Shown here: positions 8,413 to 49,965 of the stretch, in pieces
Layout of the letters: every line of letters begins with the position of its first letter
Numbering within the stretch: position 1 is the stretch's first letter
Assembly: GCA_012813795.1 (NCBI GenBank)
Contig: GCA_012813795.1_4087.1
Reading direction: 5' to 3' (one strand)
Source: a phage
DNA length: 64,000 bases
The notes under the pieces: generated by a model
Told to the model about the DNA's origin: nothing
What the model saw: the letters and a program-made list of their open reading frames with translations, nothing else
Database searches by the model: none
Translations under genes and position numbers: made by a program

Positions 8413-8460
8413 ATAGCATAAATAAATCAAATGAATGAACGAATTTATGGAGTCCTATAC

Positions 8461-11400
8461 ATGACTAATAATTTTAAGTTTCTACCAACTAAAACGGCAG
8501 AAGCAGTACAACAGAAGCTTTTCATTAAAAGATTACCTGAATGGATGCAAGGCTTAGAAGACATTCAAAAGGTTAGTGATGATGTAATTCAACAATGGTT
8601 CAATCCAGCGGATAATGAAATCGTTGATGGATATATTGGTGATATGGGTTCTCCTGCTGCATCTGCTAAGATTTTCCTTGACGAATCAACCGTTGAACGT
8701 CAGCTATATCAATTATCAACAGCATATGTGTCTCGTAATGATGACACAAGCATTCGTTCGCTTCAATTTTATGATGATTTGGTTGGCTACATGGAACACT
8801 ATGGCACGTTAACTTCAAACGAGAGCCGTCTATTTTCTGGTAAGTTCTATTCTTGGACACCACCAATTAACCCAAACAAAATGACCAACTATAGTTCTTA
8901 TTTGTGGGATAGTAAAAATAGTTTTGGTATCACATCACCTGACTTTATTGTTATGGAACGTGGTGCTGATAACGGTAACACTTGGTCACTACAGAACTTT
9001 TGGTATACTATTGGACAAACCCTAGAAGATGGTACAGTACTAACTGCTGACATGACGCAGGATACTCGTTTTATTCGTGCACAAGCACCAATCATCGAAT
9101 ATAATAAAAACATCGAATTAATCAACTACGGAACAAATTTCCGTGGTATTGTTGACCTATTCTCTGATACAGTTAAACCAGAAGATATCGTTCAAAAGGA
9201 CGTTAACGATGGTATTCGTATCGATGGTATCATTCCACAAGATGGTATGCGTATTCTATTCACCAGTATCGGTAACGTTGGTGAAAACAACCGCATTTAT
9301 AAAGTTTTTATAAAGAAAATGCAAGATGGTTCTCGTACCTATGGTTTGGCACTAGATCCTGACGAGGAATCAGAAGAACGCCCAAGTGGTGAACCCCATA
9401 ACGGTGATGTAATTTTGGTGCGTGATGGTAATGTATATAAAAATACATCCATGTACTGGAATGGTGTTGATTGGGTTAGAGCACAAACCAAATCTGGTAT
9501 CAACGTGTTCCCACAATTCCAATTGTATGACCGTGATGGTTTCAAATTAAACGACACTACTATGTATCCATCAAGTAATTTCGTTGGATCATCACTATTT
9601 GGTTTCAAAATTAACTATAATTATGGCACTGATAAAGTATACGGTTATAATATTGAATTAGGTAATTATAATTACTACATGTACGAAAACTTTCTTCAAA
9701 GTGTTCGTTATACATATGATCATTTGGGTGTTGAAACAGAAATTTCTGGATTATATTACTATAATGTAGTTGGTAAAGATAATGAACTTCACCTTAAGAC
9801 CGATTGGGTTCGCTCAAAGGAAGATTCAAAACAATTTGTTAAACAAACACCACAAATCGAACATACTGATATGTATCGTGTATTCAATACTGTATTTGAA
9901 ATGGAAAACTTCAAAACTCCATTAGAAGGTATGTATGCATATGTCATTGAAGTTGATCGTACCTATCAATATTACAAAGAAGAACGTCAAACCTATATGG
10001 ATTGGCATGTAATTAGTGGTGAAGGTATTCAAAGTGAACGTTTCAATCGCACATTTGAATTAGCCCAGAAAATTATTGATGGTAAGAGTACTGAAATCAT
10101 TGAAATTCAAGTTGATGGTGTGGATGTAACCGATTATACACGTCATGTATATAATAACAAGGTTCAAAGCATCACTTTAGGGGAAGACGTTACTCTTAAA
10201 GATGAATCAGTAATTCAAATTAGAACATATAGCAGTACGGAAGTACCAAATAAAGAGTTGGGTGCATATGAAATCCCAATTAACTTACAAAATAACCCAT
10301 ACAACGATAATATTCTTTATATCAACCAAAGTAATTTTACATTACATTTTAAAGATATCATTCAAAAGAATATTACCAGTGGTTCAGTTGATGATTTCAA
10401 TGACTACGAAGAGCGTTTGTCTAAAGGTTTAGTAGATAACTCTGTAGGTACTAAGATTATCCAAAACGAAGCATCTATGCTACCGTTAATGGCACATTCT
10501 GCAAATGAAGACATTGACCTATTTGAATCTGTATTGTTTATGCAATCAGAGTACTTTCGTTTTGTAAACAAGTTCAATACACAAATGATTCGTTTGTATA
10601 ATGAGAACCCAGCAAACTTCTTAGCTAATAATGCTTCTAATATTGTTGATGAAATTCTAACAATTATTAATATGGGTCATGATAATACATTCCCATTCTA
10701 TTATGACAACGTGGCAAGTACTTCTGGTTTCATTCGTGCTTTTGTACCACCAACTCCACAGTTCTTAGGTATTTTAAAAGCTCACGTTCCAGAAAAAGCA
10801 ACATTTTTGAATGCTGGTAGTAAGCAAAGCTGCTATAACATCAGCCATACTGGTGCAATCACCAAAGCATACCGTGTAATTAACGGTGTTGATAAAATGG
10901 ATGACGTTATATATGAATTAGAAAATCGAATCTTCAATAGTATTGATGTTATTTTCAAAGATGAAGATTACCAACCTAAGCTAGATGCTTCTGACCTTTT
11001 CCCTACTCCGTATTTTAGAGATACAGAGTATAATGATGAAGAGAAGAAGAACTTACTACTACGTGGTTACATTAACTTCATCGCAACCAATGGTATCAGT
11101 AACAGTTCGCATGATTATGATCCAAATAACTGGATGACTTGGAATTATACTGGAACTTATTACATTGTTAATGGTCAACAAACACAAATACCAGCACGTG
11201 GTTCATGGCGAGCAATCTACACTGACCAATTTGGTACATATCGCCCAGCAACCCATCCGTGGGAAATGTTTGGATTCTCCCAACGTCCGGTTTGGTGGAA
11301 CCAAGAGTACGAACCAACAGCAGTTCAAGTTGGTGAACGCGACAGTGATGTTGTTTATGTATATGAGGCATTGGTTCTCAACGAACAAGGTAACATGGTC

Positions 11401-14400
11401 CCTAGTGGGTTGTGGGATGTTGGTAATGAGAAAGGTGATAGCTCAACTGGAACTATCTTATTTGGTGCACGTAAAGGCCAATATGACAAGTATAAACGTT
11501 TTGGTACACAACCATTCAAGATCACCAAAACAGGCAAGCAGACTGCTTCTGGTGTTGATATTTGCGTTATTGAGTACATTGCACCTGAAGTATTAGGTCT
11601 TGTTTATGGTAGTTTGAATCATCGTGCTGAACCTTGGACCTATGGTGACATGGGTGACATGGAATTCACATACATGAACACCTCAATGTTCGCATATGAT
11701 GAATTAATGTTGTTATTCAAAGCTAAACCTGCACAATTCACCAACTATTTCTGGAATACTCGAAATAATACATTAAAAACTGTATCTGGTAACGAACCAC
11801 AGTTTTTATATGGTGATACTCGTTTACGTTTGAACTTTAACAGTGATACAATAGTACATGGTGAGAATAGCACTCGTGTTATTGGTTATCAAATGATTGT
11901 TAGTAACTATTTGATGTATCAAAACAAAAACATCACTACTAAGTACGGTGAAGTTGTTCGTTCTTCTCATATTAATGTTGGTCATAAACTAGGTGGATTC
12001 ACTAAAGCTGACCAATTAACATTTACGTCAGAAGCAACTGGTCTAATTTCACAAGAAAACCAATCTATCGGGTTAGTTCGTTCTAATAATATTAGAAATG
12101 AGCAAATGAGTGCAATTAAAATTACTTGGACTGGTAGTGCTTACCAAATTGATGGTTATGATTTAGTTTCTGCAACATTCAATTATAAATTGCCTGTTAA
12201 AAACGGTCATAAAGTAACTTTGAAAGTTGATAATCGTAATGTTGTTCATTATAATGAGTGGAAAAATGATGCATCAATCCCTTACGGAACTTTGATGAAT
12301 ACATTCCAAGAAGTTTACACATTTATTTGTGGTTATGGTGAGTATCTCAAACAACATGGTTGGATTTTTGAAGAAGTTGATGAATCTGGTATCCAACAGG
12401 ACTGGAATACAATTGCAAAAGACTTTTTAATCTGGAGTCAACAACAATTGAGTACTGGTGAATTCATTTCATGTACTCCATCTGCAATTAAAGCCAAATT
12501 TGGTACAGATTTTGGTTCAGTACAGTCAATTACACAAAATAGTGGTGGTGTTTGGTCACTATTAGATGATTCAAACCAAGGTATCCGTCAATTTGAGATT
12601 GAAACATCTCGTATTGGTAATATATTCACGGTGAGAACTACTGAAGAATCAAATAAACGCATGGCACTTATTCGTTTAAGTATCAGTTCATATGAACATG
12701 CTGTTATTTTTGATGATCAGACTATTTTCGGTGACTATATCTACGAACCAACCTATGGTGCAGTTCAAGAATTGATTAAATTGTATGGATATATCACTGG
12801 TTCATGGTCTGGTCGCTTACAAGCTCCTGGATTTATCATCCTAGAAGCTGGAACATTACCATCATTTGAAACATTGGTATCAAATTTCCAACAGTATTAT
12901 GATAATGAAACTCCAGTTAGTGATGTTCAATTGAATGAACTATCAAATCACTTAATTGGTTATCAGTCTCGCGATTACTTACAACGTATGATCACCAACG
13001 AGCCTGGTAGAATTGATTTCTATAAAGGTTTCATCCACGATAAAGGTACTAACCAAGTACTAGAAAAAGTACTACGTGTATCTAAATCATATAATACTGA
13101 TGAGTATAAAGCATTACAAGAATGGGCATTCCGAGTTGGTTCTTATGGTAACATTGATGGGGTTAAAAATCTTCAATTTAAACTAATTAATAATGAGTTT
13201 AAACAACAACCACAAATGATTTCGTTTGACCGCTATGCTGATAAGGTAGAGTCAGAGAATGAGATCGTATATTATGGTGAAATTGGTGAAGATTCACGCT
13301 GGATTAGTCGTCCTAAAGGTAAATTCTCATTACCTATGCGTAGTGGAAGAAGTGAGAACATCCAATTACCTAATATTGGCCCAGTAACCTTAGATGAAAT
13401 TGATTATACCACATTGAATTATGAAACGGCTAATCAAGATCGCATTAGTTACACGAATAACTTTGGCAAAATACCAACATCTGTTTGGATGTTCCAAGAT
13501 ATTAATAACGAATGGAATATATATGATTTGGTAGACACTGGTATTACAATGGTTTCCATTACACCAATAGAGAATAGCGACCCATATGCTGAGCAATATT
13601 GTAAAGTACTATTGTCTGATGACATCCCACTAATGGATGGTGATTATTACTATTTCGTTGATGAAACAAACTTTATGCCTGACGCACTACGTGAAGAAGG
13701 TCAATATTACACTTCTGGACTAAATCCAAAAGTTATGGTTGTGCCATTTGACACTTCTATCACTATTGACTTCTCAACTGTAGAATCAGCACCACGTTTG
13801 TATCGTTATGTTAGTAGATTCAGCACTCAACAAGAACGTGATGATTATATTGCTAAAAAATACAGTTACAGTGCACCTGAAAGTACTTTGTTTGACCGTC
13901 CTACTACGTATGATGAAAGAACAAACATCACTGCATTGTATTTGAATGTGTTTGACCCAATCAATGGTGTTATTCCTGGTGTAGCAATGCAAGATGTTGA
14001 TTTCATCTCCCCTGTTGATCCAGCACAATATAGCAGTAATGGTGAACTATTACAAGCATGGGGTGCTGAAAAGGTAGGTAAGGTATGGTGGAACACTAGT
14101 ACTGCATTCTATCTGGATTATACCCGTCCAATCTTTGATGAGGATGGAAACGTTGATGTAAAAGCAACTAATGAATATAAGCGTTATAATTGGGGTAAAT
14201 TATTACCACACAGTGTTATTGATGTTCTAGAATGGGTTAGTTCACCAGTAGAACCATACAACTGGGAAAAATATTGTGCAGAACAAGCCAATAAAAATAA
14301 AAACAACACCATGTATCTCCCAAGTGGGGTTGCGATGGATGATAACTATAGTTCATCTATGGAATATGATCCAATCACCGATACATATGTAGTTCGTTAT

Positions 14401-17400
14401 TATTTCTGGGTTCGTAATACAATTTATGTTCCACCAATGACTACTCGTAGTAAGTCTTGTACTGATATTGCACGTATTATTCAAGATCCAACACAATTGA
14501 ATGTTCCTTGGTTTGCACCTATTAACGAAAATAGTTTCATTCTAAGTAATATGCAATTTGAAGTTAATGATGATACAAGCATTTTGACAATTTCATATAG
14601 AAATGACAATATTGAAGTCCTGAAGCATGACCAATATCAACTTTGTAAAGAAGGTGATAGTTATGACTTTAACCCAGATATTTGGAATTCTCTATGGAAC
14701 TCACTAATTGGTCAAGAAACTACTTCAACTGGTGTTGTAAATGAAATAGTTTATCCTAAAGTTGAAACTGGTTTGGGTTCTAATAAAACTTGGTTCCAGA
14801 ATGTTATTGAAGCTCGTCGTGCGTTTGTTGAGAGTGCTAATAACTTTTACCGTTCACATAACATCACAACTAACAGTGTTGTTATGAATGATGTCTTTAA
14901 TGTTAAAACATTAAAAATGAACCCGAATGATATTACATTCCGTGTTCTATCATTTAACAATGAATTGGTAATTGCACCAGAAGACAACCGCTTCAAAGAG
15001 AATGATGCAGTATTTGTAAGTTCCATTGGAACATTACCAGCACCATTATCTTCAAGTTCTGTATATTTTGTTCACATTGATCCAAATGGATACATTCAAT
15101 TGATGAACAGTCCAAGCACAGTTGGTAGTACTGTCACAATCACTCTAGAAAATAGAGGCGAAGGTCAACACAAGATGATTAAACAAGCTGACTTCATTGA
15201 ATCACTTGGTACATCGTTGGATATGACACAGTACTGGAATCTAGCTGATTGGTACGATACTGGATACGATAGTAACACTGAATATACACAAGAAGTTAGT
15301 TTAGATGACGCAAACACTAAAAATTACCAAATTGGTGATATTATCCGTGTAACTGATAGTGATGGCGTTTGGACATTATACATCAAGACTGCATCTCGCA
15401 ATAATGTATACTGGAGAGCTATTGGACGTGAGAATAGTACTGTTGAATTGAATTCAATGTTATATTCTAGTTACAATGTTTATAATGATGATGGTTCTTT
15501 GAATTCTCATGAGGTTAACGTTCGTAATGCGTTAGCGTTGTTGAAAAATTCATTCGATTTATATCAAAGTAATATTGTATTTGATATGGTTAAGTACGTG
15601 CACACTGAACAAAGTGTTGTTGATTGGGTATTCAAAACCTCCTATATCTATATCGTAGGTTTGGAGCAATCACTAGTACAGAACTACTCAAATGACAACT
15701 TGATTAATCAAATTGTTGAGTACTTCGAGGAAGTTAAACCATACAGAACCAAAATCCGTTCTCAAATCGAACAGAAAACTTCTGATGATGATTTGATTAA
15801 TGGTATTAGTAATGACCTTGACCCAGATGGCTATATTTTAGTTGATGGTGTGTGGGTTAAGACTGAAAAAGACATTTGGGATTTAGAATATGCACAATTC
15901 AATGATGTAACTCAACGTTGGGAAAAGATTGGTTCACTACCAAGTGACTTTATCACACCTAATAGACGATTCCAAGAAATAGACGTTATTATGCATTATG
16001 ATAATATTCAATGTGAACAGTATGATAGTAATTATACAATTGATGAGTTGAAATCAACCAATAGTAAGTATCAATCCAACGAGGCTGATGTAGGTAATAA
16101 TTATGAATTACAGAGATATGTTTATACATTCCCTGAATATGATAATAATACCTTAATTTCACAAATTGGTATTGAAATGACTACCAAATATTCAGATTTG
16201 GATATTAGTAATGGTGTTATTAAAGGAATTGATGCATGGTATAAAGCACATTCAACTGATATCGCATCAACTGACCAATTTACTACTGATTTGGAGCAGG
16301 TAACTGCTGATACAAACAATAGTAATATTTTAGAAGATGTTAAAAAATATATTCAATATAATACATTAGCAACTCGTGTGAAAATGTTTAATAATATATC
16401 TGATGATATGGTTTCTAATGAGATTGGTTGTCCGTTTAAGGGTACAAACTATAATGATAATCCTAATACTCGCCTCCCATTCGGGTTTAGTGCAAGTAGT
16501 GATTATAACTATGGTTATTTTGAGATTAGTATTGAACTATATGAAAAATATGTCGATATGATCAAGAAAAATCACCCAGAGTTTACAAACGAAGACCAAA
16601 TTCGTAACATTCTTGAAATAGAATATGGTGTTTATTGCTACAAGTATGATACCACATTAAATGACCGTTATTATTCTGATACCGTTCATGTTTTATCTGC
16701 TATGCGACAAACATTTAATAAGAATATTCTAGATCATTATTATGTTGCTAGAGAAATCTTAAGTAATCGTTCAGTTGAGAAGTATGCTTTTGTTATGATG
16801 CCAAGAAAGTATGTGTATGTTGTGAATGCGGCGGGTGAATATCTACCGATTCCTGAAAGTTACAGCATATCTGATTTCATGGAAGACTTGTTCATAACAA
16901 CCGGAGAATCAGTTGTATTGGCTGAAATTGATTTAAATGATTTACCACAAGACCAGAATAATCCTATGTATTCTGCATACATTGAAGTACTGGAAAGTAT
17001 TAATACCGCGAAATATTTCAATGATATGAACGCATTCGATAACTTGGCATTGGAATCACAAACCAAGTCCATTAAATGGGAAGTTAAAGATAGTGAGATT
17101 GATCCTTATATCATCGACATTTCTGAACTAAACCCATCAGGAAGAACAATGGCACAATTGCGTTTCACTGTTGATGGTTATGGTTTCGATGAAGTTGCTC
17201 AAGAGCAATTAAAAGACACGAGTAGATTCCAAATTGAGGGTATGATCGTACAGAACCCTTACAATATGTCAGAAGCAATTGTAAGTATTCCATCATATGA
17301 TATTGTCATCGAGAATATGGGTAAAGATGTGTTTAAAGATTCAGAAAAATACTTCTTCCCAATTTCAGAAATTAAAACAATTACTGAAATCAAGGTTCAT

Positions 17401-18438
17401 GATGAAGGATTGAAAAATGGTGATAAGGTTGTGATTTTCACACCAGATGGTGAAGATTATGTACGATTCCAAGATGGTGAATGGGTAACTATACTAAGTG
17501 CTAGTAAAATCCAAACCTCCAAAAAACCAAAACTGTACACTGTGCGTGTATTGGGTAACGGAAACGTTGAGTTGGTTGATGGTAACGGTGTTGCATTGAT
17601 GTTTGATAGTGTAACTAAGCGTGAAAGTAATGAGCGTTTTTATACATTATCAATGAACTTAGTTAGAATCCGCACTTTCCAAGACCCTGAGTTTGATGAC
17701 AATGGCCTTAAACTATATGAAAATAATCGTCATTATAGTATACATGCATTGAACTATGAAGTATTCTATGACGAAACATTATATGGTGGTAAATTCAATG
17801 ATGGTATCACATCTGATGAGATTGATTTGTGGTTAGTTTCCAATGAGATTTTTGAAGTTGATGGTATTACAATTGATAATGGTTATAATCAACCAATCAC
17901 TGGTAAAGGTGTTCTAGGTGAACTAGTACGAGCTAAAATGACTGATGGTATTGAAATCACTGTATTTGAATACGATGTTGATGTTATTCAACCAGTACTA
18001 AGTTATGATCGCGTGTGGCAGTATGCACAACCAGTGGTCAATAACACGTTCATCAAAGAGGTAGGATGTAATGTTATTAACATTACAACTGTTGAAGATG
18101 AGGCAATCACTTATGTTGCTAAACCTCGTTCAATAAGCCCATATATCATTACTGATTCAGTACTGTCAGGTGCTGCGGCACAGAATGATGATATTATTGT
18201 GGTTGGATATGAGAAGGTTCAGGTAAGAAATACTGATCGTCTATTACGTGGTGTCATGTATAGTGCGGAGCATAATTTCACAAAAGGAACTTCTTATAGC
18301 TTCAATGGATTGAACTTAGGAAGCATTGATAAGTTTACTCAATATCAAAACTTCTATCCACCAATTCCATTAGAGACATTCAGAAATGGATTGTCAATTA
18401 CTGGAACCGATATCGAAAAACTTTTGAATATTCAATAA
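8461..18438 (+). CDS. giant virion-associated structural protein (about 3300 aa), function unassigned
   Basis: Single uninterrupted ORF; ORF track begins at ATG 8431 but ATG 8461 has a GGAG RBS and lies downstream of an ATAAATA late-promoter-like box (8418-8424). Last gene of the baseplate operon, followed by a strong terminator. Confidence 0.6.
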   Translation: MTNNFKFLPTKTAEAVQQKLFIKRLPEWMQGLEDIQKVSDDVIQQWFNPADNEIVDGYIGDMGSPAASAKIFLDESTVERQLYQLSTAYVSRNDDTSIRSLQFYDDLVGYMEHYGTLTSNESRLFSGKFYSWTPPINPNKMTNYSSYLWDSKNSFGITSPDFIVMERGADNGNTWSLQNFWYTIGQTLEDGTVLTADMTQDTRFIRAQAPIIEYNKNIELINYGTNFRGIVDLFSDTVKPEDIVQKDVNDGIRIDGIIPQDGMRILFTSIGNVGENNRIYKVFIKKMQDGSRTYGLALDPDEESEERPSGEPHNGDVILVRDGNVYKNTSMYWNGVDWVRAQTKSGINVFPQFQLYDRDGFKLNDTTMYPSSNFVGSSLFGFKINYNYGTDKVYGYNIELGNYNYYMYENFLQSVRYTYDHLGVETEISGLYYYNVVGKDNELHLKTDWVRSKEDSKQFVKQTPQIEHTDMYRVFNTVFEMENFKTPLEGMYAYVIEVDRTYQYYKEERQTYMDWHVISGEGIQSERFNRTFELAQKIIDGKSTEIIEIQVDGVDVTDYTRHVYNNKVQSITLGEDVTLKDESVIQIRTYSSTEVPNKELGAYEIPINLQNNPYNDNILYINQSNFTLHFKDIIQKNITSGSVDDFNDYEERLSKGLVDNSVGTKIIQNEASMLPLMAHSANEDIDLFESVLFMQSEYFRFVNKFNTQMIRLYNENPANFLANNASNIVDEILTIINMGHDNTFPFYYDNVASTSGFIRAFVPPTPQFLGILKAHVPEKATFLNAGSKQSCYNISHTGAITKAYRVINGVDKMDDVIYELENRIFNSIDVIFKDEDYQPKLDASDLFPTPYFRDTEYNDEEKKNLLLRGYINFIATNGISNSSHDYDPNNWMTWNYTGTYYIVNGQQTQIPARGSWRAIYTDQFGTYRPATHPWEMFGFSQRPVWWNQEYEPTAVQVGERDSDVVYVYEALVLNEQGNMVPSGLWDVGNEKGDSSTGTILFGARKGQYDKYKRFGTQPFKITKTGKQTASGVDICVIEYIAPEVLGLVYGSLNHRAEPWTYGDMGDMEFTYMNTSMFAYDELMLLFKAKPAQFTNYFWNTRNNTLKTVSGNEPQFLYGDTRLRLNFNSDTIVHGENSTRVIGYQMIVSNYLMYQNKNITTKYGEVVRSSHINVGHKLGGFTKADQLTFTSEATGLISQENQSIGLVRSNNIRNEQMSAIKITWTGSAYQIDGYDLVSATFNYKLPVKNGHKVTLKVDNRNVVHYNEWKNDASIPYGTLMNTFQEVYTFICGYGEYLKQHGWIFEEVDESGIQQDWNTIAKDFLIWSQQQLSTGEFISCTPSAIKAKFGTDFGSVQSITQNSGGVWSLLDDSNQGIRQFEIETSRIGNIFTVRTTEESNKRMALIRLSISSYEHAVIFDDQTIFGDYIYEPTYGAVQELIKLYGYITGSWSGRLQAPGFIILEAGTLPSFETLVSNFQQYYDNETPVSDVQLNELSNHLIGYQSRDYLQRMITNEPGRIDFYKGFIHDKGTNQVLEKVLRVSKSYNTDEYKALQEWAFRVGSYGNIDGVKNLQFKLINNEFKQQPQMISFDRYADKVESENEIVYYGEIGEDSRWISRPKGKFSLPMRSGRSENIQLPNIGPVTLDEIDYTTLNYETANQDRISYTNNFGKIPTSVWMFQDINNEWNIYDLVDTGITMVSITPIENSDPYAEQYCKVLLSDDIPLMDGDYYYFVDETNFMPDALREEGQYYTSGLNPKVMVVPFDTSITIDFSTVESAPRLYRYVSRFSTQQERDDYIAKKYSYSAPESTLFDRPTTYDERTNITALYLNVFDPINGVIPGVAMQDVDFISPVDPAQYSSNGELLQAWGAEKVGKVWWNTSTAFYLDYTRPIFDEDGNVDVKATNEYKRYNWGKLLPHSVIDVLEWVSSPVEPYNWEKYCAEQANKNKNNTMYLPSGVAMDDNYSSSMEYDPITDTYVVRYYFWVRNTIYVPPMTTRSKSCTDIARIIQDPTQLNVPWFAPINENSFILSNMQFEVNDDTSILTISYRNDNIEVLKHDQYQLCKEGDSYDFNPDIWNSLWNSLIGQETTSTGVVNEIVYPKVETGLGSNKTWFQNVIEARRAFVESANNFYRSHNITTNSVVMNDVFNVKTLKMNPNDITFRVLSFNNELVIAPEDNRFKENDAVFVSSIGTLPAPLSSSSVYFVHIDPNGYIQLMNSPSTVGSTVTITLENRGEGQHKMIKQADFIESLGTSLDMTQYWNLADWYDTGYDSNTEYTQEVSLDDANTKNYQIGDIIRVTDSDGVWTLYIKTASRNNVYWRAIGRENSTVELNSMLYSSYNVYNDDGSLNSHEVNVRNALALLKNSFDLYQSNIVFDMVKYVHTEQSVVDWVFKTSYIYIVGLEQSLVQNYSNDNLINQIVEYFEEVKPYRTKIRSQIEQKTSDDDLINGISNDLDPDGYILVDGVWVKTEKDIWDLEYAQFNDVTQRWEKIGSLPSDFITPNRRFQEIDVIMHYDNIQCEQYDSNYTIDELKSTNSKYQSNEADVGNNYELQRYVYTFPEYDNNTLISQIGIEMTTKYSDLDISNGVIKGIDAWYKAHSTDIASTDQFTTDLEQVTADTNNSNILEDVKKYIQYNTLATRVKMFNNISDDMVSNEIGCPFKGTNYNDNPNTRLPFGFSASSDYNYGYFEISIELYEKYVDMIKKNHPEFTNEDQIRNILEIEYGVYCYKYDTTLNDRYYSDTVHVLSAMRQTFNKNILDHYYVAREILSNRSVEKYAFVMMPRKYVYVVNAAGEYLPIPESYSISDFMEDLFITTGESVVLAEIDLNDLPQDQNNPMYSAYIEVLESINTAKYFNDMNAFDNLALESQTKSIKWEVKDSEIDPYIIDISELNPSGRTMAQLRFTVDGYGFDEVAQEQLKDTSRFQIEGMIVQNPYNMSEAIVSIPSYDIVIENMGKDVFKDSEKYFFPISEIKTITEIKVHDEGLKNGDKVVIFTPDGEDYVRFQDGEWVTILSASKIQTSKKPKLYTVRVLGNGNVELVDGNGVALMFDSVTKRESNERFYTLSMNLVRIRTFQDPEFDDNGLKLYENNRHYSIHALNYEVFYDETLYGGKFNDGITSDEIDLWLVSNEIFEVDGITIDNGYNQPITGKGVLGELVRAKMTDGIEITVFEYDVDVIQPVLSYDRVWQYAQPVVNNTFIKEVGCNVINITTVEDEAITYVAKPRSISPYIITDSVLSGAAAQNDDIIVVGYEKVQVRNTDRLLRGVMYSAEHNFTKGTSYSFNGLNLGSIDKFTQYQNFYPPIPLETFRNGLSITGTDIEKLLNIQ

Positions 18439-40378: not shown

Positions 40379-41854
40379 TTACGAACGTTGGCGTTTTTTG
40401 TCCGCTTCATATTCGTAGTGAACAGTTTCACCAAATGGTGCTACTTTGTTCGGGTTACTGTGGATTACAAACAGTGTTTTACAGTAGTTAGGATCACCCC
40501 ATGACTGCCACGGTTCACCATCGGTAAACATGATAAGCTGCTTAGGCTTATAATTGTCATGCTTCATGTGAACCCAAACTGCTTCAAAGTCAGTACCGCC
40601 ACCACCTTTAACTGGATATTCAAGAATCTTACGTTCTTCACCAGTTTTATAATCCATCACAGTATAAACTTCAGTATCAAATGTCATGATACGAATTTTA
40701 AACTGCTTGAATTGTTTAGTGATGCCTAGTACTTCACTGATGAAATCGCGAAGCATATCTTCACTGATAGAGCCTGATGCATCGAGTGCAATTGCAATAT
40801 CAATATCGTCATCTGGTTTCATGCCTGGGAAGATTGGATTCCCATAGAATGAACCGTTAGAACCAAAACCAGCACCCCACGAACGGCGGCTTGGGCTTTG
40901 ATAGGTCGCATCGGACTTCAACCAACTACGAAGAGTACGTTGAAGTTTAGAACGCCAGTCAATTTTTGGTTCTTTAAAGTTATTGATCATACGAGCGATT
41001 TCAGCAGGAGTACCACCTGCACGAGCAGCATTCATCATTGCTGTTTTGAAATCGTCCATGTATTCACGTTTTTGTGCTTCAGATGCACCACCTTCACCAC
41101 CTTCACCATCTTGTGGTACATCGTGTTGGTCAATGGTAGTGCCTTTGCCTTTACCATTTTGGATATCACCAAAAGTACCGCGTGATTTACCTTCACCTTC
41201 ACCACTACCAGATTGTGGCTGACCTTCACCTTCATCTTGATCTTGTTTATCTTCTTCTTCTAGAAGAATATAAATCTCTTCGGCGGTCATACCATCATAC
41301 TTCTTATCATACAACCATTGACTTTGAATCTTACCAATTTTTTCACGAACAATAATTTGGTTGATTGCGTAGTCTGCTGCACGGTTGTAGCGTTGTGGGT
41401 CACGCATACCACGACGAAGGAAGTGATCGTATGCACAGTGAAGAATTTCATGACAGATAACTGCAATCAGGTTTTCATCAGTCAAACCTTCGGTCATTTC
41501 TTTCAATTGTTCTTCAGTTACTTCAGGATGCTTCTCACGAATTGCTTCTTCGTATGCTTCTTTCTTGCTTGGGTCTTGAATACCCATGATAAATTCTACG
41601 TTATAGAATAAATGTTTACCATCTACTGCTAAGGTACGACACCATGTATTGTTTGCAACTGGACGCAGACGTGAAGCCAGTACACCAAAGAATGGAGCAG
41701 TTAACATCAGAGAAGTACGAGCAAGAATCAAACGGTCTTGGCATTCTTTCTGGAGTTGTGGTGTTACGTCGCTAAATTTCTTATCGGACATGATATTTCC
41801 TCGTTTAGTTAAGATAAAAGAAGGATACCATGTGGCATCCTTCTTGTCAAACAT
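40379..41854 (-). CDS. von Willebrand factor A (vWA) domain protein with N-terminal HExxH metallopeptidase-like domain
   Basis: 491 aa; HEILH zincin-like motif (VICHEILHCAYDH) in the N-terminal half; MIDAS-type DxSxS motif (ALDASGSIS) in the C-terminal half; Gly/Glu/Gln-rich linker; RBS AGGAAA. Confidence 0.75.
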   Translation of the reverse strand: MFDKKDATWYPSFILTKRGNIMSDKKFSDVTPQLQKECQDRLILARTSLMLTAPFFGVLASRLRPVANNTWCRTLAVDGKHLFYNVEFIMGIQDPSKKEAYEEAIREKHPEVTEEQLKEMTEGLTDENLIAVICHEILHCAYDHFLRRGMRDPQRYNRAADYAINQIIVREKIGKIQSQWLYDKKYDGMTAEEIYILLEEEDKQDQDEGEGQPQSGSGEGEGKSRGTFGDIQNGKGKGTTIDQHDVPQDGEGGEGGASEAQKREYMDDFKTAMMNAARAGGTPAEIARMINNFKEPKIDWRSKLQRTLRSWLKSDATYQSPSRRSWGAGFGSNGSFYGNPIFPGMKPDDDIDIAIALDASGSISEDMLRDFISEVLGITKQFKQFKIRIMTFDTEVYTVMDYKTGEERKILEYPVKGGGGTDFEAVWVHMKHDNYKPKQLIMFTDGEPWQSWGDPNYCKTLFVIHSNPNKVAPFGETVHYEYEADKKRQRS

Positions 41855-41865
41855 TCTTTTAGTTA

Positions 41866-43191
41866 TTAACCAAGAGAACGTGCTTTGCGTACTAGGTCAG
41901 AGTACTTCATAACGAAGTCTTTGAACGCTGGAACATCTTTGTACGCAATCGCTACCTTATGTTGAGTGATGGTACGAATTGCTAGTACTGCCAGTTCTGC
42001 CTGAGTTTCGGAGAAGTTACGGTCCAGGAAGGTGATGAAGTTGTTGCACAGCTTGCCCCACTCTTCAACTGGAAGACGTTGTTCTTGCTTCTCATTGTAC
42101 AGGTCGATAATTTTATAAACCAGATTCAGAGAGATGAAGTAGTTCGCAGAAATATCCAGCGTTGCATCAATCTCTTTAATCTCACCCTGTAGGATGGACA
42201 TAGTATCTGGTAGTTTAGATACGTTTTCTACGTATTCGATATATTCAGTTGCTACACCTTCACCAACACGACCAGCGATTAGAGCACGGAACACTTCTTT
42301 ATCAATGTTGTTGCCTTTCTTCAGGTCTTCGTAGCGTGCTACTGCTTCCCATGAACGTGGAGAAGTACCACCACTGTGAGAAGGATCTTGTGGGCTAAGG
42401 GTGTTGAAGTACTTAGCACCAGTGTTGTTGATGAACGCAACAGTACCTGGGTTCAAACGCTTAGCAATCGCGTAATCGTCAATCCAATCTTGATGGTAAG
42501 GAACCATTTCGATGTGGGTCATACGGTCACGTAGTGGCGTTGCCAGAGAGAACGTTACGCCGCCATCAGTTTCACGGTTACCTGCTGCGAGAATCAGTGC
42601 AGTCTTAGGTAGCTTCATCTCACCAACACAACGGTCGAGGATTAGCTGATAAGACGCTGCCTGTACAATCGGCATAGCAGAGTTAATTTCGTCAAACAGG
42701 ATAACACCTTTCCAATCTGGAGACAGTTTCAGTACTTTAGGTGCTGCCCATACAACTGCTGTTTCAGCAATGTAATCTTTAGCTGTTTCCAGTTCAGATT
42801 CAATCAGTTGTTTGCCATCCATATCCAGGAACACTTTTTCAGGGACTGGGATACCACGTAGGTCACTTGGTTCAATCTGTGACAAACGGAAGTCGATGAA
42901 GTTAGTGTCTTGGTCAATCAGTTTTGCTTCAAACGCTGCCAGTTCGCGGCGAAGTGCATCAGCATTTTCAGCATCAACTTCAATTTGTTGTTTCATGAAC
43001 TCGATTTTAGCCAAGTTATCCTTACGAAGAGGATAGTTCTCGTCAGCGTATTGACGTGCAATCGCAGACTTACCGATACCAGGGCTACCCCAAATCATCA
43101 GACTGTCCTGAATTTTATCTGCCAGAGCCATAGCCATTTTTGCTTTCTTAGGAGTCAGTTTTACGTTCAGGATATCTTGTTGTTCGCTCAT
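41866..43191 (-). CDS. AAA+ ATPase, MoxR/CobS-like
   Basis: 441 aa; Walker A GSPGIGKS, Walker B ILFDEINSA, sensor region LILAAGNRETDG; immediately upstream of the vWA gene (the classical MoxR-vWA pairing). Confidence 0.8.
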   Translation of the reverse strand: MSEQQDILNVKLTPKKAKMAMALADKIQDSLMIWGSPGIGKSAIARQYADENYPLRKDNLAKIEFMKQQIEVDAENADALRRELAAFEAKLIDQDTNFIDFRLSQIEPSDLRGIPVPEKVFLDMDGKQLIESELETAKDYIAETAVVWAAPKVLKLSPDWKGVILFDEINSAMPIVQAASYQLILDRCVGEMKLPKTALILAAGNRETDGGVTFSLATPLRDRMTHIEMVPYHQDWIDDYAIAKRLNPGTVAFINNTGAKYFNTLSPQDPSHSGGTSPRSWEAVARYEDLKKGNNIDKEVFRALIAGRVGEGVATEYIEYVENVSKLPDTMSILQGEIKEIDATLDISANYFISLNLVYKIIDLYNEKQEQRLPVEEWGKLCNNFITFLDRNFSETQAELAVLAIRTITQHKVAIAYKDVPAFKDFVMKYSDLVRKARSLG

Positions 43192-43544: not shown

Positions 43545-43889
43545 TCACCGACACAATGTTAATTCAGTAACTACCATTGCGTCGGAGAGATATATGTAGT
43601 AGCCATCAACATAATAAGGACTTCTACATATTCTATCAAGCGATGTAAATATTATAGAGCTTTTGAACTCTCTTAGCAAGGGGATTTTTGTAAATTCATA
43701 AAGATTATTTTCTTCACAAATCATAAATCCATACTTACTAAGCCTCAAACCACCACCAGTTCTGAAGTTTTCAAAAATAGACATCAGAAGCATTCTGTCA
43801 GTGATTTCAGCGTCCGATTCATGTACTTCTTTAACTTTTATAAGTACTTCATTTTGAAATTCAGTGCTGTTAGTGGGTTGTGGTATCAT
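43545..43889 (-). CDS. hypothetical protein
   Basis: 114 aa ORF, tightly packed with upstream ORFs. Confidence 0.4.
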   Translation of the reverse strand: MIPQPTNSTEFQNEVLIKVKEVHESDAEITDRMLLMSIFENFRTGGGLRLSKYGFMICEENNLYEFTKIPLLREFKSSIIFTSLDRICRSPYYVDGYYIYLSDAMVVTELTLCR

Positions 43890-43891
43890 AA

Positions 43892-44293
43892 TTACATCCC
43901 CACAAAACCTTGTCTGGCAGCATAAGAAGGAGCATCTTTAACTTTATAGCTACGATGACCTTCACTGTCAACTTTAGGAGCCATATCTTCAGTACCGAAA
44001 TCTTCTTCAATTTCTTTAGTACTGTCTTTTGCTTCTAAGTCATCATTATATTCCACATCTGCCAAAATGTCACATGCTTTTTTAAGTTTTTCTGCGATTT
44101 CTTTATGGTCAGAACCTTCTTCTTTTGCTTTATCAACTAAAGCAACTAAAGATGTAGTGATTTCCTTTAGTAAATCAACGATAACGTTGTCCGAATCTTC
44201 TTGGACAACGATACCATTTTCTTCTTGAGGAACTTCTTCTTCTGCCATAATCGCATCTAGTGATTCCACTAGTTCACGATAGTTATATGACAT
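43892..44293 (-). CDS. hypothetical acidic protein
   Basis: 133 aa, Glu/Asp-rich. Confidence 0.45.
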   Translation of the reverse strand: MSYNYRELVESLDAIMAEEEVPQEENGIVVQEDSDNVIVDLLKEITTSLVALVDKAKEEGSDHKEIAEKLKKACDILADVEYNDDLEAKDSTKEIEEDFGTEDMAPKVDSEGHRSYKVKDAPSYAARQGFVGM

Positions 44294-44294
44294 A

Positions 44295-45233
44295 TTACTT
44301 ATCTCCTAGAAACTTATTGTACTTACTTTGGAGACTTTCAAAAATGTCTTCTACAGATTCGTCTTCTTCAGACTCTTCTTCTTCAGCTTCGTAAACATTA
44401 AGTGGGTTATCACCTAGAGCAGTACCAGGTGCTTTTGGCTTGAATTCATGTACACGATGTACATTGCCTTCATTATCATATTCTTCTGGATTTGGAACAT
44501 TGTCAAGTTCTTCTTGAACAACACGTCTCCAGTAGAATTGGTTTCCTTTAGGAACTACGATGAAGTTATCACCTTCAACACCATTGGTTTTAGCTTGACC
44601 ATCTTGAACAGCATCGTATTCAGAACGGAAAGGACCAAAATCAGTTGTGTCAAGTGCTGGACTCTCTTCTTCTAGACTTAGGTCAGGAAGGATTTGAGAT
44701 TCAGTAACTTCTTCTTCATCTTCATCTACTGCTTCAGTAACAGGAAGACCAGCTAGAGACATCATACGACCGAAATCGAATTCTTCTTCAATAACTTCTT
44801 CGTCTTCATCTGATAGAGTAGATTCTAGCTTAGGTTGACCACTCATGTCAAGAGAAAGTTCATCTTCTTCACCAGGAGCTTCAACATCGATAACTGGAAT
44901 GTCAGCTTCACCTTCTGCATCAGCACCGAAATCAGTTACTGAACCAGATAGATCATCAACAGCTTGTGCTAGTGGGTCTTCTTCACCAATTTCTGGAACA
45001 GGTGCTACATCAGCACCCATTTCTGGAGCAACAACTTCTGGTTCTTCCGCTGAACCACCAAAAGAACCGAAGTCAAGTGGAGCGATTGGAGAAACAGTAG
45101 GTGCTACGGATGATTGCTTTTCAGCTTGACCAGCTAGTGCAAGCATACGGGATAGTGCTTCTAGATCAGCAGATTCTAGACCAGCAATATCAATTTTAAC
45201 CTGTGCTTCATTAATTTTTTTTGCCATTTTCAA
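44295..45233 (-). CDS. hypothetical highly acidic protein
   Basis: 312 aa, long Glu/Asp-rich stretches (EEEESEEDESVED at C-terminus); function not inferable. Confidence 0.5.
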   Translation of the reverse strand: MKMAKKINEAQVKIDIAGLESADLEALSRMLALAGQAEKQSSVAPTVSPIAPLDFGSFGGSAEEPEVVAPEMGADVAPVPEIGEEDPLAQAVDDLSGSVTDFGADAEGEADIPVIDVEAPGEEDELSLDMSGQPKLESTLSDEDEEVIEEEFDFGRMMSLAGLPVTEAVDEDEEEVTESQILPDLSLEEESPALDTTDFGPFRSEYDAVQDGQAKTNGVEGDNFIVVPKGNQFYWRRVVQEELDNVPNPEEYDNEGNVHRVHEFKPKAPGTALGDNPLNVYEAEEEESEEDESVEDIFESLQSKYNKFLGDK

Positions 45234-45246
45234 TAAATCCTTTTAG

Positions 45247-46719
45247 TTATTCATCATTATTATTTAATGATTTTAAAATCTGCACTACTTCATCTTTATT
45301 ACCAGCCAATAGAATGTCAGCGGCTAGTAAAGAAACCTTATCACCACGGGTTAGCAGTACTGTAATCTTTTTCGCATAAGGAGAAGATTTAATTTGTGAT
45401 GCAAGTGCTTCCATACCATTCCCTTGCTCAACTTCTGGTTCAGGGGTCGGTTCTGGTTTAGGCTCTTCCTTTGGTTCTTCTTTCGGTTCAGCCTGTGCTT
45501 CAGGTTTAGGTTCTTCTTGTGCTTTTGGTTCTTCTTGTGGTGCGTCATTTGGTTTAGGTTCATTCTCTGATTTAGAAGATTCAAAACGATCCAGAATAGC
45601 TTGTGCAGCACTTTTTGGAATCATTTTACCATCTGGACCAATGAATCGATCACCACCAACGTATACATATTCTTTGCCTTTCTTAGAAGTAACTTTTGTT
45701 CCGATTTTCATTGCACCAGATTCGTTATGTTTAAGAATGGCTTGTTGTGCAGCACGCTCAATACTTTGTGCAGCACCTGAATTTAGTTGTTTTTTAGTTT
45801 CAACATCAAACCAAGCACCACGTTGTTTAGCATAAGTTTTGTTTTTACCAGAAGTAAAACGGTATCCATCTGGTACACCAACTGCTGGTTCATCTTCAGC
45901 TTCGGTAACTTTTTCTGGCTTCGGTACAGAACCAAAACGTTGTTCTTCACCAGTACTAGCACCAGTTAAAGAAGGAAAATCTTCAGGATTTGCCTTAACG
46001 AACTGTGAATATGCTTGGAAAATAGCTTTCGAGCCTTGTTCAGATACTACCACATTACCGTCATTATCGCAAAATTCTTTACCGTTCCATTCAGAACGAA
46101 CATTACCTTGAATCAATACAGATTTCAATGGGATTAGTTTATTGTTTGTAGATAATTGGCGAGCAATGCGAAGACCTTCTTCACTTAGTTTACGTGTCAT
46201 TTCTGGGCTTACAGGGCGACCGCTTTTTAGTTCAACAAAGCGATGACTGTTAGGAATAAACTTATATCCTTGAACTACAATACCTGCTGGGATAGAAATA
46301 TCTTGTGCATGTGGGGGTAGAATATAAAATTTCAAAGTACTCCACTCTTTTTGTAGAGTTTCTTTGGAAACTTGATATACACGTTGTTCATCACCCATTA
46401 GTTCTGTAATCACTTCACTTTCAGAAAGAATAGTACCGTCATCACTATGGAAGCGGCTTTCACCGATGAACGTACACTCTTTTCCATTGTGAAGATAGTT
46501 TTCGCCAATTTTAAATGCAGTGTTTGATTTATTGTTGTGCTCAACAATTTGTTGTCGAGCACAAGCATACATATTTGGATATTTTTGTGGATCAACCATC
46601 ATCATATTACTATCATTGAACCACATACCTTCTAAGAAGACATATTTTGCTCCAGTATGGGAAGTATAGATATACCCATTAGGAACTACCGTACTTTCAG
46701 TACTGAATAATTTAAGCAT
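45247..46719 (-). CDS. hypothetical protein with internal repeats and a PE/K-rich low-complexity linker
   Basis: 490 aa; repeated KIGxxYxxxGKExxFxGxxRFxxxDG modules; EEPKAQEEPKPEAQAEPKEEPKEEPKPEP tract. Confidence 0.5.
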   Translation of the reverse strand: MLKLFSTESTVVPNGYIYTSHTGAKYVFLEGMWFNDSNMMMVDPQKYPNMYACARQQIVEHNNKSNTAFKIGENYLHNGKECTFIGESRFHSDDGTILSESEVITELMGDEQRVYQVSKETLQKEWSTLKFYILPPHAQDISIPAGIVVQGYKFIPNSHRFVELKSGRPVSPEMTRKLSEEGLRIARQLSTNNKLIPLKSVLIQGNVRSEWNGKEFCDNDGNVVVSEQGSKAIFQAYSQFVKANPEDFPSLTGASTGEEQRFGSVPKPEKVTEAEDEPAVGVPDGYRFTSGKNKTYAKQRGAWFDVETKKQLNSGAAQSIERAAQQAILKHNESGAMKIGTKVTSKKGKEYVYVGGDRFIGPDGKMIPKSAAQAILDRFESSKSENEPKPNDAPQEEPKAQEEPKPEAQAEPKEEPKEEPKPEPTPEPEVEQGNGMEALASQIKSSPYAKKITVLLTRGDKVSLLAADILLAGNKDEVVQILKSLNNNDE

Positions 46720-46731
46720 TGTATTATCCCC

Positions 46732-47289
46732 TTACGAAATCATTCGAAGTAGTTGCTCACGTTCAGCAGGACTTAGACCTTGTAGAATACCAGCAATACC
46801 TTGTGATTGGGTAGATGGATTCGCCGCTGGTTGTGGTGGTTCATTTGAAGCTTGTGGTGCTGCTGCTGGTTCACTTTGTGGTTTAGCTGGTGCTGGTGCT
46901 GGCTCTTCTTGATCACGATATGTGTTCATGTATTCACGAGAAGCCTGTAGTAGAGCGTTACCAACATCTTTAGGTGTGAAAGAACGGCGTTGGTTATTAC
47001 CAAGGAATTTCACATCCAATTGATTACCTTTGAAGAATTGTGCAACATCAGCATATGGAACAGAGCTTTGTGCTTTACCATATTTTTTACCAATATATCG
47101 TTTAAATTCAGCCCATAGGCGGTTAGCTTCTGCACCAACTTCCTGTGCACCTTGCTCAATCTGCCCACTACCGAACATACCTTTTACTTTCCCTTTAGCA
47201 CTATCAATAGCACTTTGAGAACGACTATAAGGACGAGCTTCATTCAGTTCATTGTCCTCATACTCAAACATTTCATTAAGTATACTCAT
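46732..47289 (-). CDS. hypothetical protein with Pro/Ala-rich C-terminal region
   Basis: 185 aa ORF; PAPAPAKPQSEPAAAPQ tract. Confidence 0.45.
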   Translation of the reverse strand: MSILNEMFEYEDNELNEARPYSRSQSAIDSAKGKVKGMFGSGQIEQGAQEVGAEANRLWAEFKRYIGKKYGKAQSSVPYADVAQFFKGNQLDVKFLGNNQRRSFTPKDVGNALLQASREYMNTYRDQEEPAPAPAKPQSEPAAAPQASNEPPQPAANPSTQSQGIAGILQGLSPAEREQLLRMIS

Positions 47290-47292
47290 CGT

Positions 47293-47823
47293 TTATTCCT
47301 TTTTACCAAAACCAGCACTCATATATTGAGAGTATTTATTATCACGTTTAATCTCTTCTTTTGCGTCTTCAACTGCTTTGTCAGCACGTTCTTGACCAGA
47401 AATACCAGTACTATCTACTGCATCACCGAAATCTTTTCCGATAACACGAATTTCGTCAAAATCAACGTCATCTTCACTGATTGACATTTCAATTTGACGT
47501 GGTTCATCTTTACCGCGAACACGAATAAGTGCTTCAGTAACAGATAGAAGGTTTCCAATTTCATACATTAGTACATTAGACTGTACACCACGATTGCATT
47601 TGAAATCAAACATCCAGATTTCACCACAATCTAGTTCATAAAAGTCTAGTGGTTTTTCCATGAAAATAGTTTTCTTCAGAGCACCAACTTCGAAAGCATC
47701 ATAGCGATCTACTAGACGTTGGGTAACTTTACTCAATTGTTCAGTACTAGGTTCAAATGCAAATTTGACACGATATTCATATACAGGTTTATTTTCTGTT
47801 AGAATTTGTTGTAGTTTGTTCAT
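47293..47823 (-). CDS. hypothetical protein
   Basis: 176 aa ORF. Confidence 0.45.
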   Translation of the reverse strand: MNKLQQILTENKPVYEYRVKFAFEPSTEQLSKVTQRLVDRYDAFEVGALKKTIFMEKPLDFYELDCGEIWMFDFKCNRGVQSNVLMYEIGNLLSVTEALIRVRGKDEPRQIEMSISEDDVDFDEIRVIGKDFGDAVDSTGISGQERADKAVEDAKEEIKRDNKYSQYMSAGFGKKE

Positions 47824-47851
47824 TTAATAACTCCATTAATGGTCGTTTAAG

Positions 47852-49965
<2,114 letters not shown>

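Follow-up and report, generated by a model that had tools for sequence, protein, structure and literature searches.

We analyzed a 64,000-nucleotide stretch of phage DNA (NCBI GenBank assembly GCA_012813795.1, contig GCA_012813795.1_4087.1; hereafter the window), in which two consecutive minus-strand genes encode strongly acidic proteins, one of 133 amino acids (aa) and a larger one first delimited as 312 aa (Table 1). An initial annotation, made from the DNA letters alone, had called both proteins strongly acidic and had named DNA-mimic anti-restriction proteins, scaffolding proteins, and internal virion proteins as candidate functions. Both open reading frames (ORFs) were present as described, and the calculated isoelectric points (pI) and net charges confirmed their acidity. 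The content of Asp plus Glu (D+E) averaged 13.3 +/- 3.3%, with a maximum of 21.2%, in the remaining 55 of the 57 non-overlapping ORFs of the window. The acidic pair headed all 57 ORFs in acidity, with D+E z-scores of 4.0 and 3.9, that is, about four standard deviations from the rest. The accompanying description of long acidic tracts was overstated: the longest pure run of Asp and Glu spans six residues (DEDEEE). The acidity of the larger protein resides in acid-rich linkers, where, near residues 100-190 and 280-295, each 20 residues carry a net charge of -8 to -12, and the acid-coding DNA of this gene contains small tandem repeats of 6 and 15 nucleotides (nt).

Table 1. Coordinates of the acidic genes, their segments, and neighboring features in the window. 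Arrows stand after the Glu at which cleavage is predicted or would be expected by position; pLDDT, predicted local distance difference test.
Feature	Position	Strand	Properties
133-aa acidic protein	43892..44293	-	pI 4.26, D+E 26.3%, K+R 11.3%, net charge -20
Larger acidic ORF	44295..45233 (312 aa from TTG)	-	pI 4.05, D+E 26.0%, K+R 6.1%, net charge -62
Larger acidic protein, likely true extent	44295..45227	-	310 aa from ATG 45227
Candidate targeting peptide/propeptide of larger protein, MAKKINE↓A	45207..45227	-	predicted cut after Glu
Most conserved segment of larger protein, residues 10-38 (AQVKIDIAGLESADLEALSRMLALAGQAE)	45120..45206	-	predicted helix 21-39
Acid-, Pro-, and Gly-rich variable linkers of larger protein, residues 39-190	44664..45119	-	many insertions and deletions, pLDDT mostly <55
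Beta-alpha-beta-beta mini-domain of larger protein, residues 197-240 (FGPFRSEYDAVQDGQAKTNGVEGDNFIVVPKGNQFYWRRVVQ)	44514..44645	-	AlphaFold pLDDT 88-96
C-terminal helix of larger protein, residues 293-312 (SVEDIFES followed by LQSKYNKFLGDK)	44298..44357	-	near-invariant I-x-E-S site
Candidate targeting peptide/propeptide of 133-aa protein, MSYNYRELVE↓S (MSYNYRELVESLD...)	44264..44293	-	predicted cut after Glu
Conserved C-terminal tail of 133-aa protein (FGTEDMAPKVDSEGHRSYKVKDAPSYAARQGFVGM)	43895..43996	-	ends ...APSYAARQGFVGM
114-aa protein, last of operon	43545..43889	-	begins 2 nt past the 133-aa gene; not acidic
490-aa upstream partner	45247-46719	-	low-complexity linker
185-aa upstream partner	46732-47289	-	Gln/Pro-rich linker; RaK2 gp048 is a virion protein
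176-aa upstream partner	47293-47823	-	N-terminal MNKLQQILTE↓N, conserved
186-aa upstream partner	47852-48412	-	N-terminal MKPKQQIDE↓A, conserved
Two sigma-70 promoters	43480-43453 and 43386-43359	-	12/12 consensus, 16-nt spacers, TG extension, 94 bp apart

The TTG that opens the larger ORF at 45233 is not conserved and reads TTT in phage 121Q. All homologues of the larger protein begin M-[AKTS]-K-[KQ]-I-N-E-A, and the corresponding database protein likewise starts MAKKINEA, two codons past the TTG. Because the TTG is unconserved and the homologues share the M-x-K-K/Q-I-N-E-A beginning, the true start is almost certainly the ATG at 45227, giving a protein of 310 aa. For the 133-aa gene, an ATG and a Shine-Dalgarno sequence (GGAGA) of its own are present.

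The window shared 99.1% identity with Escherichia phage A4 (ON286972; genus Asteriusvirus), a Rak2-like jumbo coliphage, and 74-77% with 121Q, PBECO4, and phAPEC6. In A4, both acidic genes are annotated as 'structural protein' (A4_558 for the 133-aa protein and A4_557 for the larger one). Homologues of the 133-aa protein included 121Q gp561, phAPEC6 gp266c, RaK2 gp051, and CBB_214, and those of the larger protein included 121Q gp560, phAPEC6 gp267c, RaK2 gp050, and CBB_213. The larger protein matched PHROG 15988 over its full length (E 1.4e-106; residues 3-312 against profile positions 1-317), and the 133-aa protein matched PHROG 14971 (E 3.7e-37; residues 3-133 against 2-134). Homologues were found in 73 phage records for the larger protein, Rak2-like jumbo phages throughout, and in 63 phage records for the 133-aa protein. 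For the larger protein, a word-indexed search yielded 99 clusters, and an exhaustive profile search of 1.84 billion representative proteins yielded 85 clusters, 48 of them with E <= 1e-10. This profile search detected no remote homologue of known function; its weak tail consisted of low-complexity or mini-domain matches only, ten of which were scanned and contained no Pfam domain. As judged from these searches, both acidic proteins are narrow families confined to Rak2-like phages.

Homologues of both proteins have been reported in virions. Mass spectrometry of RaK2 virions recovered all of gp047-gp051, including gp050 with one peptide (5.3% coverage) and gp051 with two (18.7%) (PMC3622015 Table S3). 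In CBB virions, CBB_213 was represented by five peptides (18.9%) and CBB_214 by one (15.4%) (PMC5259590), and in phAPEC6 virions gp267c was represented by one (4.9%) (PMC7247149). These three proteomes were obtained from whole virions, heads and tails together, and the studies assigned no function to the proteins. The low counts, one to five peptides per homologue, are partly expected because the larger protein, with its few Lys and Arg residues, can give just nine tryptic peptides of 7-30 residues, which together span 117 aa. The published spectra thus support the early suggestion of a virion protein, and from homology to the detected proteins we conclude that both are very probably genuine virion components. 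The observation itself is not new, since both families are already databased as 'virion structural protein' with mass-spectrometry support. Recent articles on phages Sharanji and fEgEco12 contained no proteomic or functional data on counterparts of the acidic genes.

We then considered the N-termini of the two proteins, each of which is a short conserved peptide that closes with [L/I]-x-E and precedes Ala or Ser. Of the 97 members of the larger protein's family that include the N domain, 96 carried [LIVM]xE-A, and 93 had its Glu at position 7; in the family of the 133-aa protein, the peptide was present in all 12 close homologues (12/12). It persisted in RaK2, CBB, and XbC2, where the 133-aa homologues read LME[S/A]. 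A Vibrio phage kept the motif in the larger protein and had a truncated 69-aa counterpart of the 133-aa protein without it. In T4, the prohead protease gp21 cuts after L/I-X-E, and internal proteins are targeted to the prohead core by an N-terminal capsid-targeting sequence (CTS) of 10-19 residues, which gp21 then removes (PMC9026906). Phage A4 encodes a gp21 homologue, in a gene outside the window, that is 30% identical to RB69 gp21 and about 40% identical to cyanophage gp21 (E 1e-11 to 1e-27) and that keeps the C-terminal ITE↓S site of T4.

To score this feature, we used the motif [LIVM]xE[ASG] within the first 14 residues and applied it to 85 genes, comprising the 57 window ORFs and 28 genes of the A4 head region. 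Four of the 28 head-region genes carried the motif. All four flank the protease, and their products begin MSQLLNE↓S (major capsid protein), MSKLEKLLKE↓S (scaffold), MANLKLLQE↓A (the acidic core protein A4_7), and MLKDIFE↓S (A4_6, 76 aa). In SE_PL these peptides were retained, as they mostly were in PA5oct. A further LQE↓S lies at residues 41-44 of the major capsid protein, and a cut at this site fits the reported processing of the 121Q capsid protein from 42.2 to 37 kDa (PMC5646251). Within the window, the motif occurred in both acidic proteins, in the 186-aa neighbor (as a conserved I/V-x-E↓A-L-G), and in one DprA-like gene, where it was unconserved; LTE/LTD is conserved at the matching position of the 176-aa protein. 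Across the 85 genes, the motif was absent from all sheath, tube, baseplate, fibre, portal, and tape-measure-like proteins. By this sequence test, the motif sets prohead proteins cleanly apart from the phage's other genes. As a separate observation, A4_7 (positions 16398-17240 of phage A4, outside the window) is a third strongly acidic virion protein (280 aa, pI 4.07, D+E 27.5%); it lies between portal and protease, the position of T4 gp67/gp68, and is conserved in SE_PL and PA5oct.

The anatomy of the larger protein was examined with 34 aligned homologues and an AlphaFold model (mean pLDDT 59.5). Mean identity was 74% over residues 3-38, as against 22-29% in the linkers, and the segment of residues 10-38 was the sole part kept, at 44% identity, in distant relatives of 503 aa. 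Conserved motifs occur inside the variable linkers, namely FDFGRMMSLAGL (residues 151-163; family form FDxxRMxxLAG) and LPDLSLEE (178-190; family form LPDLSLxE), and the protein also keeps a GIxNSxH...PGTALGDNPL stretch. The mini-domain of about 45 residues has the signature GPF..x..EA...D....G..G.NF.V....DG.YW. It is present in one copy here and in two or three copies in some homologues, and it also forms a protein of 62 aa by itself and occurs within larger, unrelated proteins of 372 and 709 aa; searches of Pfam, the PDB, and Foldseek returned no relative of it. Near the other end of the protein, E299 and S300 were invariant in the alignment, and [LIVM]xES[LIVM] was found within the last 30 residues of 94 of the 99 family members, the site lying 13 residues from the C-terminus. 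This site resembles the AVFESLMSKY of the prohead protease at 7 of 9 positions. In an all-against-all BLASTP comparison of the proteins of this gene cluster with the A4 head-module proteins, the corresponding nine-residue FES-L-x-SKY shared with the protease was the sole likeness, and no paralogy was detected. Several internal [LIV]xE sites are also present in the larger protein, of which few are conserved, whereas the terminal ones are near-invariant.

For the 133-aa protein, AlphaFold predicted helices at residues 5-18, 34-57, and 63-81, all near neutral, together with two disordered acidic spacers (mean pLDDT 60). Its N-terminus is invariant as M-x-YNYRELVE-[S/A]-L. Invariant residues of the C-terminal tail are G100, T101, M104, P106, G112, Y116, A121-A125, R127, G129, F130, and G132, and the tail is kept in RaK2, CBB, XbC2, and the Vibrio phage. 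The tail has a likeness within the operon: YMSAGFGKK, the conserved end of the 176-aa protein, is similar to YAARQGFVGM, that of the 133-aa protein (43895-43930).

On balance, we lean towards reading both proteins as prohead-targeted, protease-trimmed, head-internal substrates of a gp21-type protease, where cleavage, head location, and function are what we infer from sequence. What this would add to the existing annotation is membership of both proteins in the functional class of gp21 substrates with a CTS, a placement that we think probable by a small degree. In the proposed sequence of events, the acidic genes would be co-transcribed at the end of an operon running from a tube paralogue and the gp4-like head-completion gene through the 186-, 176-, 185-, and 490-aa genes to those of 310, 133, and 114 aa. 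The N-terminal peptide of 7-10 residues would act like a T4 CTS and dock each protein into the assembling prohead core, after which the T4 gp21-type prohead protease would cut behind the Glu of [L/I]-x-E↓[A/S], that is, at MAKKINE↓A and MSYNYRELVE↓S. In the larger protein, a second cut may follow at DIFE↓S, 13 residues before the C-terminal end. The mature acidic chains would remain in the head, where short conserved elements, both helices and motifs, would contact partners and the rapidly evolving polyanionic linkers would serve as DNA-repelling spacers, and they may finally be ejected together with the DNA. The functions proposed at the outset are supported in part: beside the virion assignment, a head-internal or prohead-core role gains indirect support from the conserved T4-type N-terminal peptide, which is shared with the major capsid, scaffold, and core proteins of this phage.

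Several observations weigh against this reading. The motif is short and arises by chance, as in the DprA-like protein and at residues 12-15 of thymidylate synthase; cellular ThyA proteins likewise carry it at this position. The conservation of the N-termini could reflect a structural helix or a translational constraint instead of a cleavage signal. The acidic genes adjoin the tail-tube genes and lie outside the head module, which already has positional counterparts of T4 gp67/gp68 in A4_6 and A4_7. Searches with Pfam, PHROG, BLASTP, and Foldseek detected no homologue, by sequence or by fold, among the internal and core proteins of T4 or the inner-body proteins of PhiKZ. As for the virion data, the low peptide counts in the three proteomes argue against a very high copy number, and the 133-aa homologue gp266c was undetected in phAPEC6 virions (PMC7247149).

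Position in the genome is one argument for a different assignment, in which both would be neck, tail-completion, or tail-associated structural or assembly proteins, for example flexible connectors, bases of 'hairy' appendages, or tube or neck assembly factors. The pair is packed closely into one operon with the genes for a tube paralogue and for head completion, and this synteny is clade-wide; phAPEC6, 121Q, and CBB bear fibres on both tail and capsid, and virion mass spectrometry lumps head and tail. We nevertheless consider a tail or neck role unlikely, as the N-terminal peptide was found in no recognised tail protein among the 85 genes, yet in all four prohead core or shell proteins. Furthermore, the probable tape measure A4_4 (723 aa) is encoded elsewhere, beside the portal, and the mostly disordered predictions make an unlikely basis for ordered tail parts. 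Tail assembly chaperones of the gpG/GT type were rejected on the location of the tape-measure-like A4_4 beside the portal, the independent initiation of each gene, and the presence of homologues in virions.

Alternatively, both would be transient acidic scaffolds or chaperones like T4 gp22, mostly lost at maturation and leaving traces in virions. The recovery of only one to five peptides across studies and the missing 133-aa homologue in phAPEC6 would agree with such a loss, the acidity and helical segments resemble T4 gp22 and gp67, and the larger protein has several internal [LIV]xE sites. Detection in three independent purified-virion proteomes speaks against loss, however, and the scarcity of Lys and Arg accounts in part for the low counts. 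A dedicated scaffold is already encoded beside the major capsid protein, and few of the internal sites are conserved, the terminal ones alone being near-invariant. We regard this role as improbable.

Structured DNA mimics of the Ocr/ArdA type, cytoplasmic proteins that occupy the DNA-binding sites of restriction enzymes, were among the functions first proposed. Both proteins resemble T7 Ocr and ArdA in their very low pI, and the 133-aa protein also in being small and helical; T4 IPI* moreover sets a precedent for a head-packaged protein with an anti-restriction role (PMC9026906). The structure predictions did not bear this proposal out. No Ocr/ArdA-like fold and no rigid acidic surface were predicted for either protein, mean pLDDT being about 60 for both. 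Unlike in Ocr and ArdA, the acidic residues lie not on a rigid DNA-shaped surface but in disordered linkers (pLDDT <50) of variable length and poor conservation; the predicted helices are close to neutral. Neither protein matched Ocr, ArdA, or any entry of Pfam, NCBIfam, PADLOC, the PDB sequences, or Foldseek: scans of both proteins and their neighbors against Pfam, NCBIfam, and PADLOC gave sub-threshold low-complexity matches only, and the PDB sequence search gave nothing below E 0.49. With Foldseek, the model of the larger protein reached a best E of 3.3 against the PDB and, against viral models, recovered its own family only, apart from meaningless weak matches to disordered rhabdovirus phosphoproteins; the 133-aa model had no match in the PDB. 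The genes also end a late structural operon, with strong sigma-70 promoters downstream of them and not upstream, and their homologues are found in virions. A structured DNA mimic is thus very unlikely.

Among known systems, the nearest counterparts of the acidic pair, by analogy, appear to be T4 gp67 and gp22 rather than IPII/IPIII, which are basic. T4 gp67 (80 aa, D+E 43.8%, pI 4.05) is strongly acidic like both proteins here and starts MEGLIE↓A, and gp22 (D+E 22%) starts with a peptide of the same type, MLKEQLIAE↓A. The likeness extends to the arrangement of a short N-terminal peptide ending L/I-x-E↓A, followed by helical segments and acidic tails, and to a gp21-family protease in the same genome lineage. 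In contrast to gp67 and gp22, with which they have no detectable sequence homology, the proteins described here are larger and modular, include the beta-alpha-beta-beta mini-domain, and are encoded in a tube/head-completion operon instead of between portal and protease; their cleavage is predicted. T4 IPII and IPIII both start MKTYQEFIAE↓A, and the MSYNYRELVE↓S of the 133-aa protein shares their register, with a hydrophobic residue at position 8, Glu at 10, and a small residue at 11 (PMC9026906 for the CTS positions). T4 gp24 starts MAKINELLRE↓S. A conserved N-terminus with a fast-evolving body is also typical of T4 IPI-III and Alt, and, like Alt, the larger protein may bear propeptides at both ends. 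IPII and IPIII are basic, however, with a pI of 9.3-9.5 compared with about 4 here, no homology to them was found, and packaging and ejection of the acidic proteins are only putative.

The relatives 121Q and phAPEC6 have a PhiKZ-like inner body of 91 x 18 nm, as seen by bubblegram imaging (PMC5646251, PMC7247149), and these Rak2-like phages lack homologues of the PhiKZ inner-body proteins. PhiKZ gp93, gp95, gp97, and gp162 are head-internal and abundant, have alpha-helix-rich folds, and are cut after Glu by a gp21-related protease. The proteins here differ in being mostly disordered, in their low peptide counts, and in having no sequence or fold similarity to these four, and the PhiKZ cleavage motif is S/A-x-E compared with L/I-x-E here. 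Because there were no Pfam or PHROG cross-matches and no similarity to the phage's own core and scaffold proteins, the acidic pair are analogues, not homologues, of T4 gp67, gp68, gp22, IPI-III, and Alt or the PhiKZ inner-body proteins. Both are reasonable candidates for the inner body of the Rak2-like clade or for ejected proteins, but a place in the inner body is a speculative proposal that we hold improbable. Its fuller form is similarly doubtful: the acidic pair and the other linker-rich proteins of the block would form the inner body as a protease-matured acidic polymer brush, a principle unlike that of PhiKZ, which would exclude DNA electrostatically, act as the spool axis, and be expelled with the genome, possibly as a decoy for host DNA-binding defence proteins. 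Once injected, the acidic chains may have such a decoy role.

If the head-internal reading holds, the N-terminal tag would give a short candidate list of head-internal, inner-body, or ejected proteins for Rak2-like phages, and substrates of the prohead protease could be predicted across the clade by the simple rule [L/I]-x-E↓[A/S]. The analysis also takes both proteins, attractive but unsupported as 'DNA mimics', off the list for anti-restriction screens. In practice, its impact is modest for now.

We further examined the gene context. Along the minus strand, the sheath is followed by three tube paralogues, then by a gp4-like head-completion protein with a TnsA-like N domain (E 7e-17), the 186-, 176-, 185-, and 490-aa proteins, the two acidic proteins, and the 114-aa protein. 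The last genes of this block are separated by gaps of 1-19 nt, and no terminator-like site was found between the one at 50825-50799, after the first tube gene, and the end of the acidic-gene block. The same gene order was observed in A4, 121Q, phAPEC6, RaK2, CBB, XbC2, a Vibrio phage, and a metagenomic contig, in which the acidic pair occupies a conserved slot between the 490-aa virion protein and the 114-aa protein/MoxR ATPase. Past the block, a gap of 353 bp houses both sigma-70 promoters, which drive genes for a MoxR-type AAA ATPase (41866-43191) and a VWA/DUF2201 protein (40379-41854), similar to N4 gp24/gp25. The initial annotation had found the placement of the pair, past the tube genes and before strong promoters, to be ambiguous. 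The placement was as described, with three tail-tube paralogues upstream and two sigma-70 promoters downstream. From the operon order, the short gaps, and the promoter-bearing gap, the acidic genes therefore close the structural operon, and the sigma-70 promoters belong to the next unit. The ATPase homologue gp265c was represented by six peptides in phAPEC6 virions, which is odd for an apparently early gene.

The four proteins directly upstream of the acidic pair (45247..48412, minus strand) each have low-complexity linkers, and their RaK2 counterparts gp047-gp049 are found in virions. The 176-aa family is wider than the acidic pair: Agrobacterium phage Atu_ph07 has the 176-aa protein only, and the acidic pair was not found in it. 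RefSeq records and PHROG 16152 label the 185-aa protein 'Hsp70 heat shock protein'. Because it has no Hsp70 Pfam match and its RaK2 counterpart gp048 is a virion protein, this name looks like a propagated misannotation. In the 490-aa protein, PNGYIYTSHTGAKYVFLEGMWFN and PDGYRFTSGKNKTYAKQRGAWFD represent an internal duplication, and a repeat linker rich in (E/K)P is encoded by 12-24-nt tandem repeats at 45447-45539.

Homologues of the 114-aa protein are absent from the RaK2 and CBB virion lists. In a distant relative (Logan SRR30924190, 3434-4189), a 251-aa fusion gene follows the homologue of the larger acidic protein. The C-terminal half of the fusion is similar to the 114-aa protein (BLASTP E 5e-11), and its N-terminal half is weakly similar to the 133-aa protein (hhalign E 1e-3). 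Since the two are joined in this one gene, the distant fusion suggests that the 133-aa and 114-aa proteins act together.

With regard to late transcription, the T4 late-promoter word TATAAATA is not in use here, with one occurrence (54679-54686) in the 64 kb where shuffled sequences predict 8.4. Since a late sigma factor is encoded by the phage, its late promoters must rely on a different motif. Elsewhere in the window, positions 8431-18438 form a single ORF of 3335 aa with a net charge of -178; it adjoins a 1154-aa baseplate wedge protein and is the homologue of the 382-kDa virion protein of phAPEC6 (gp245) and RaK2 (gp070w).

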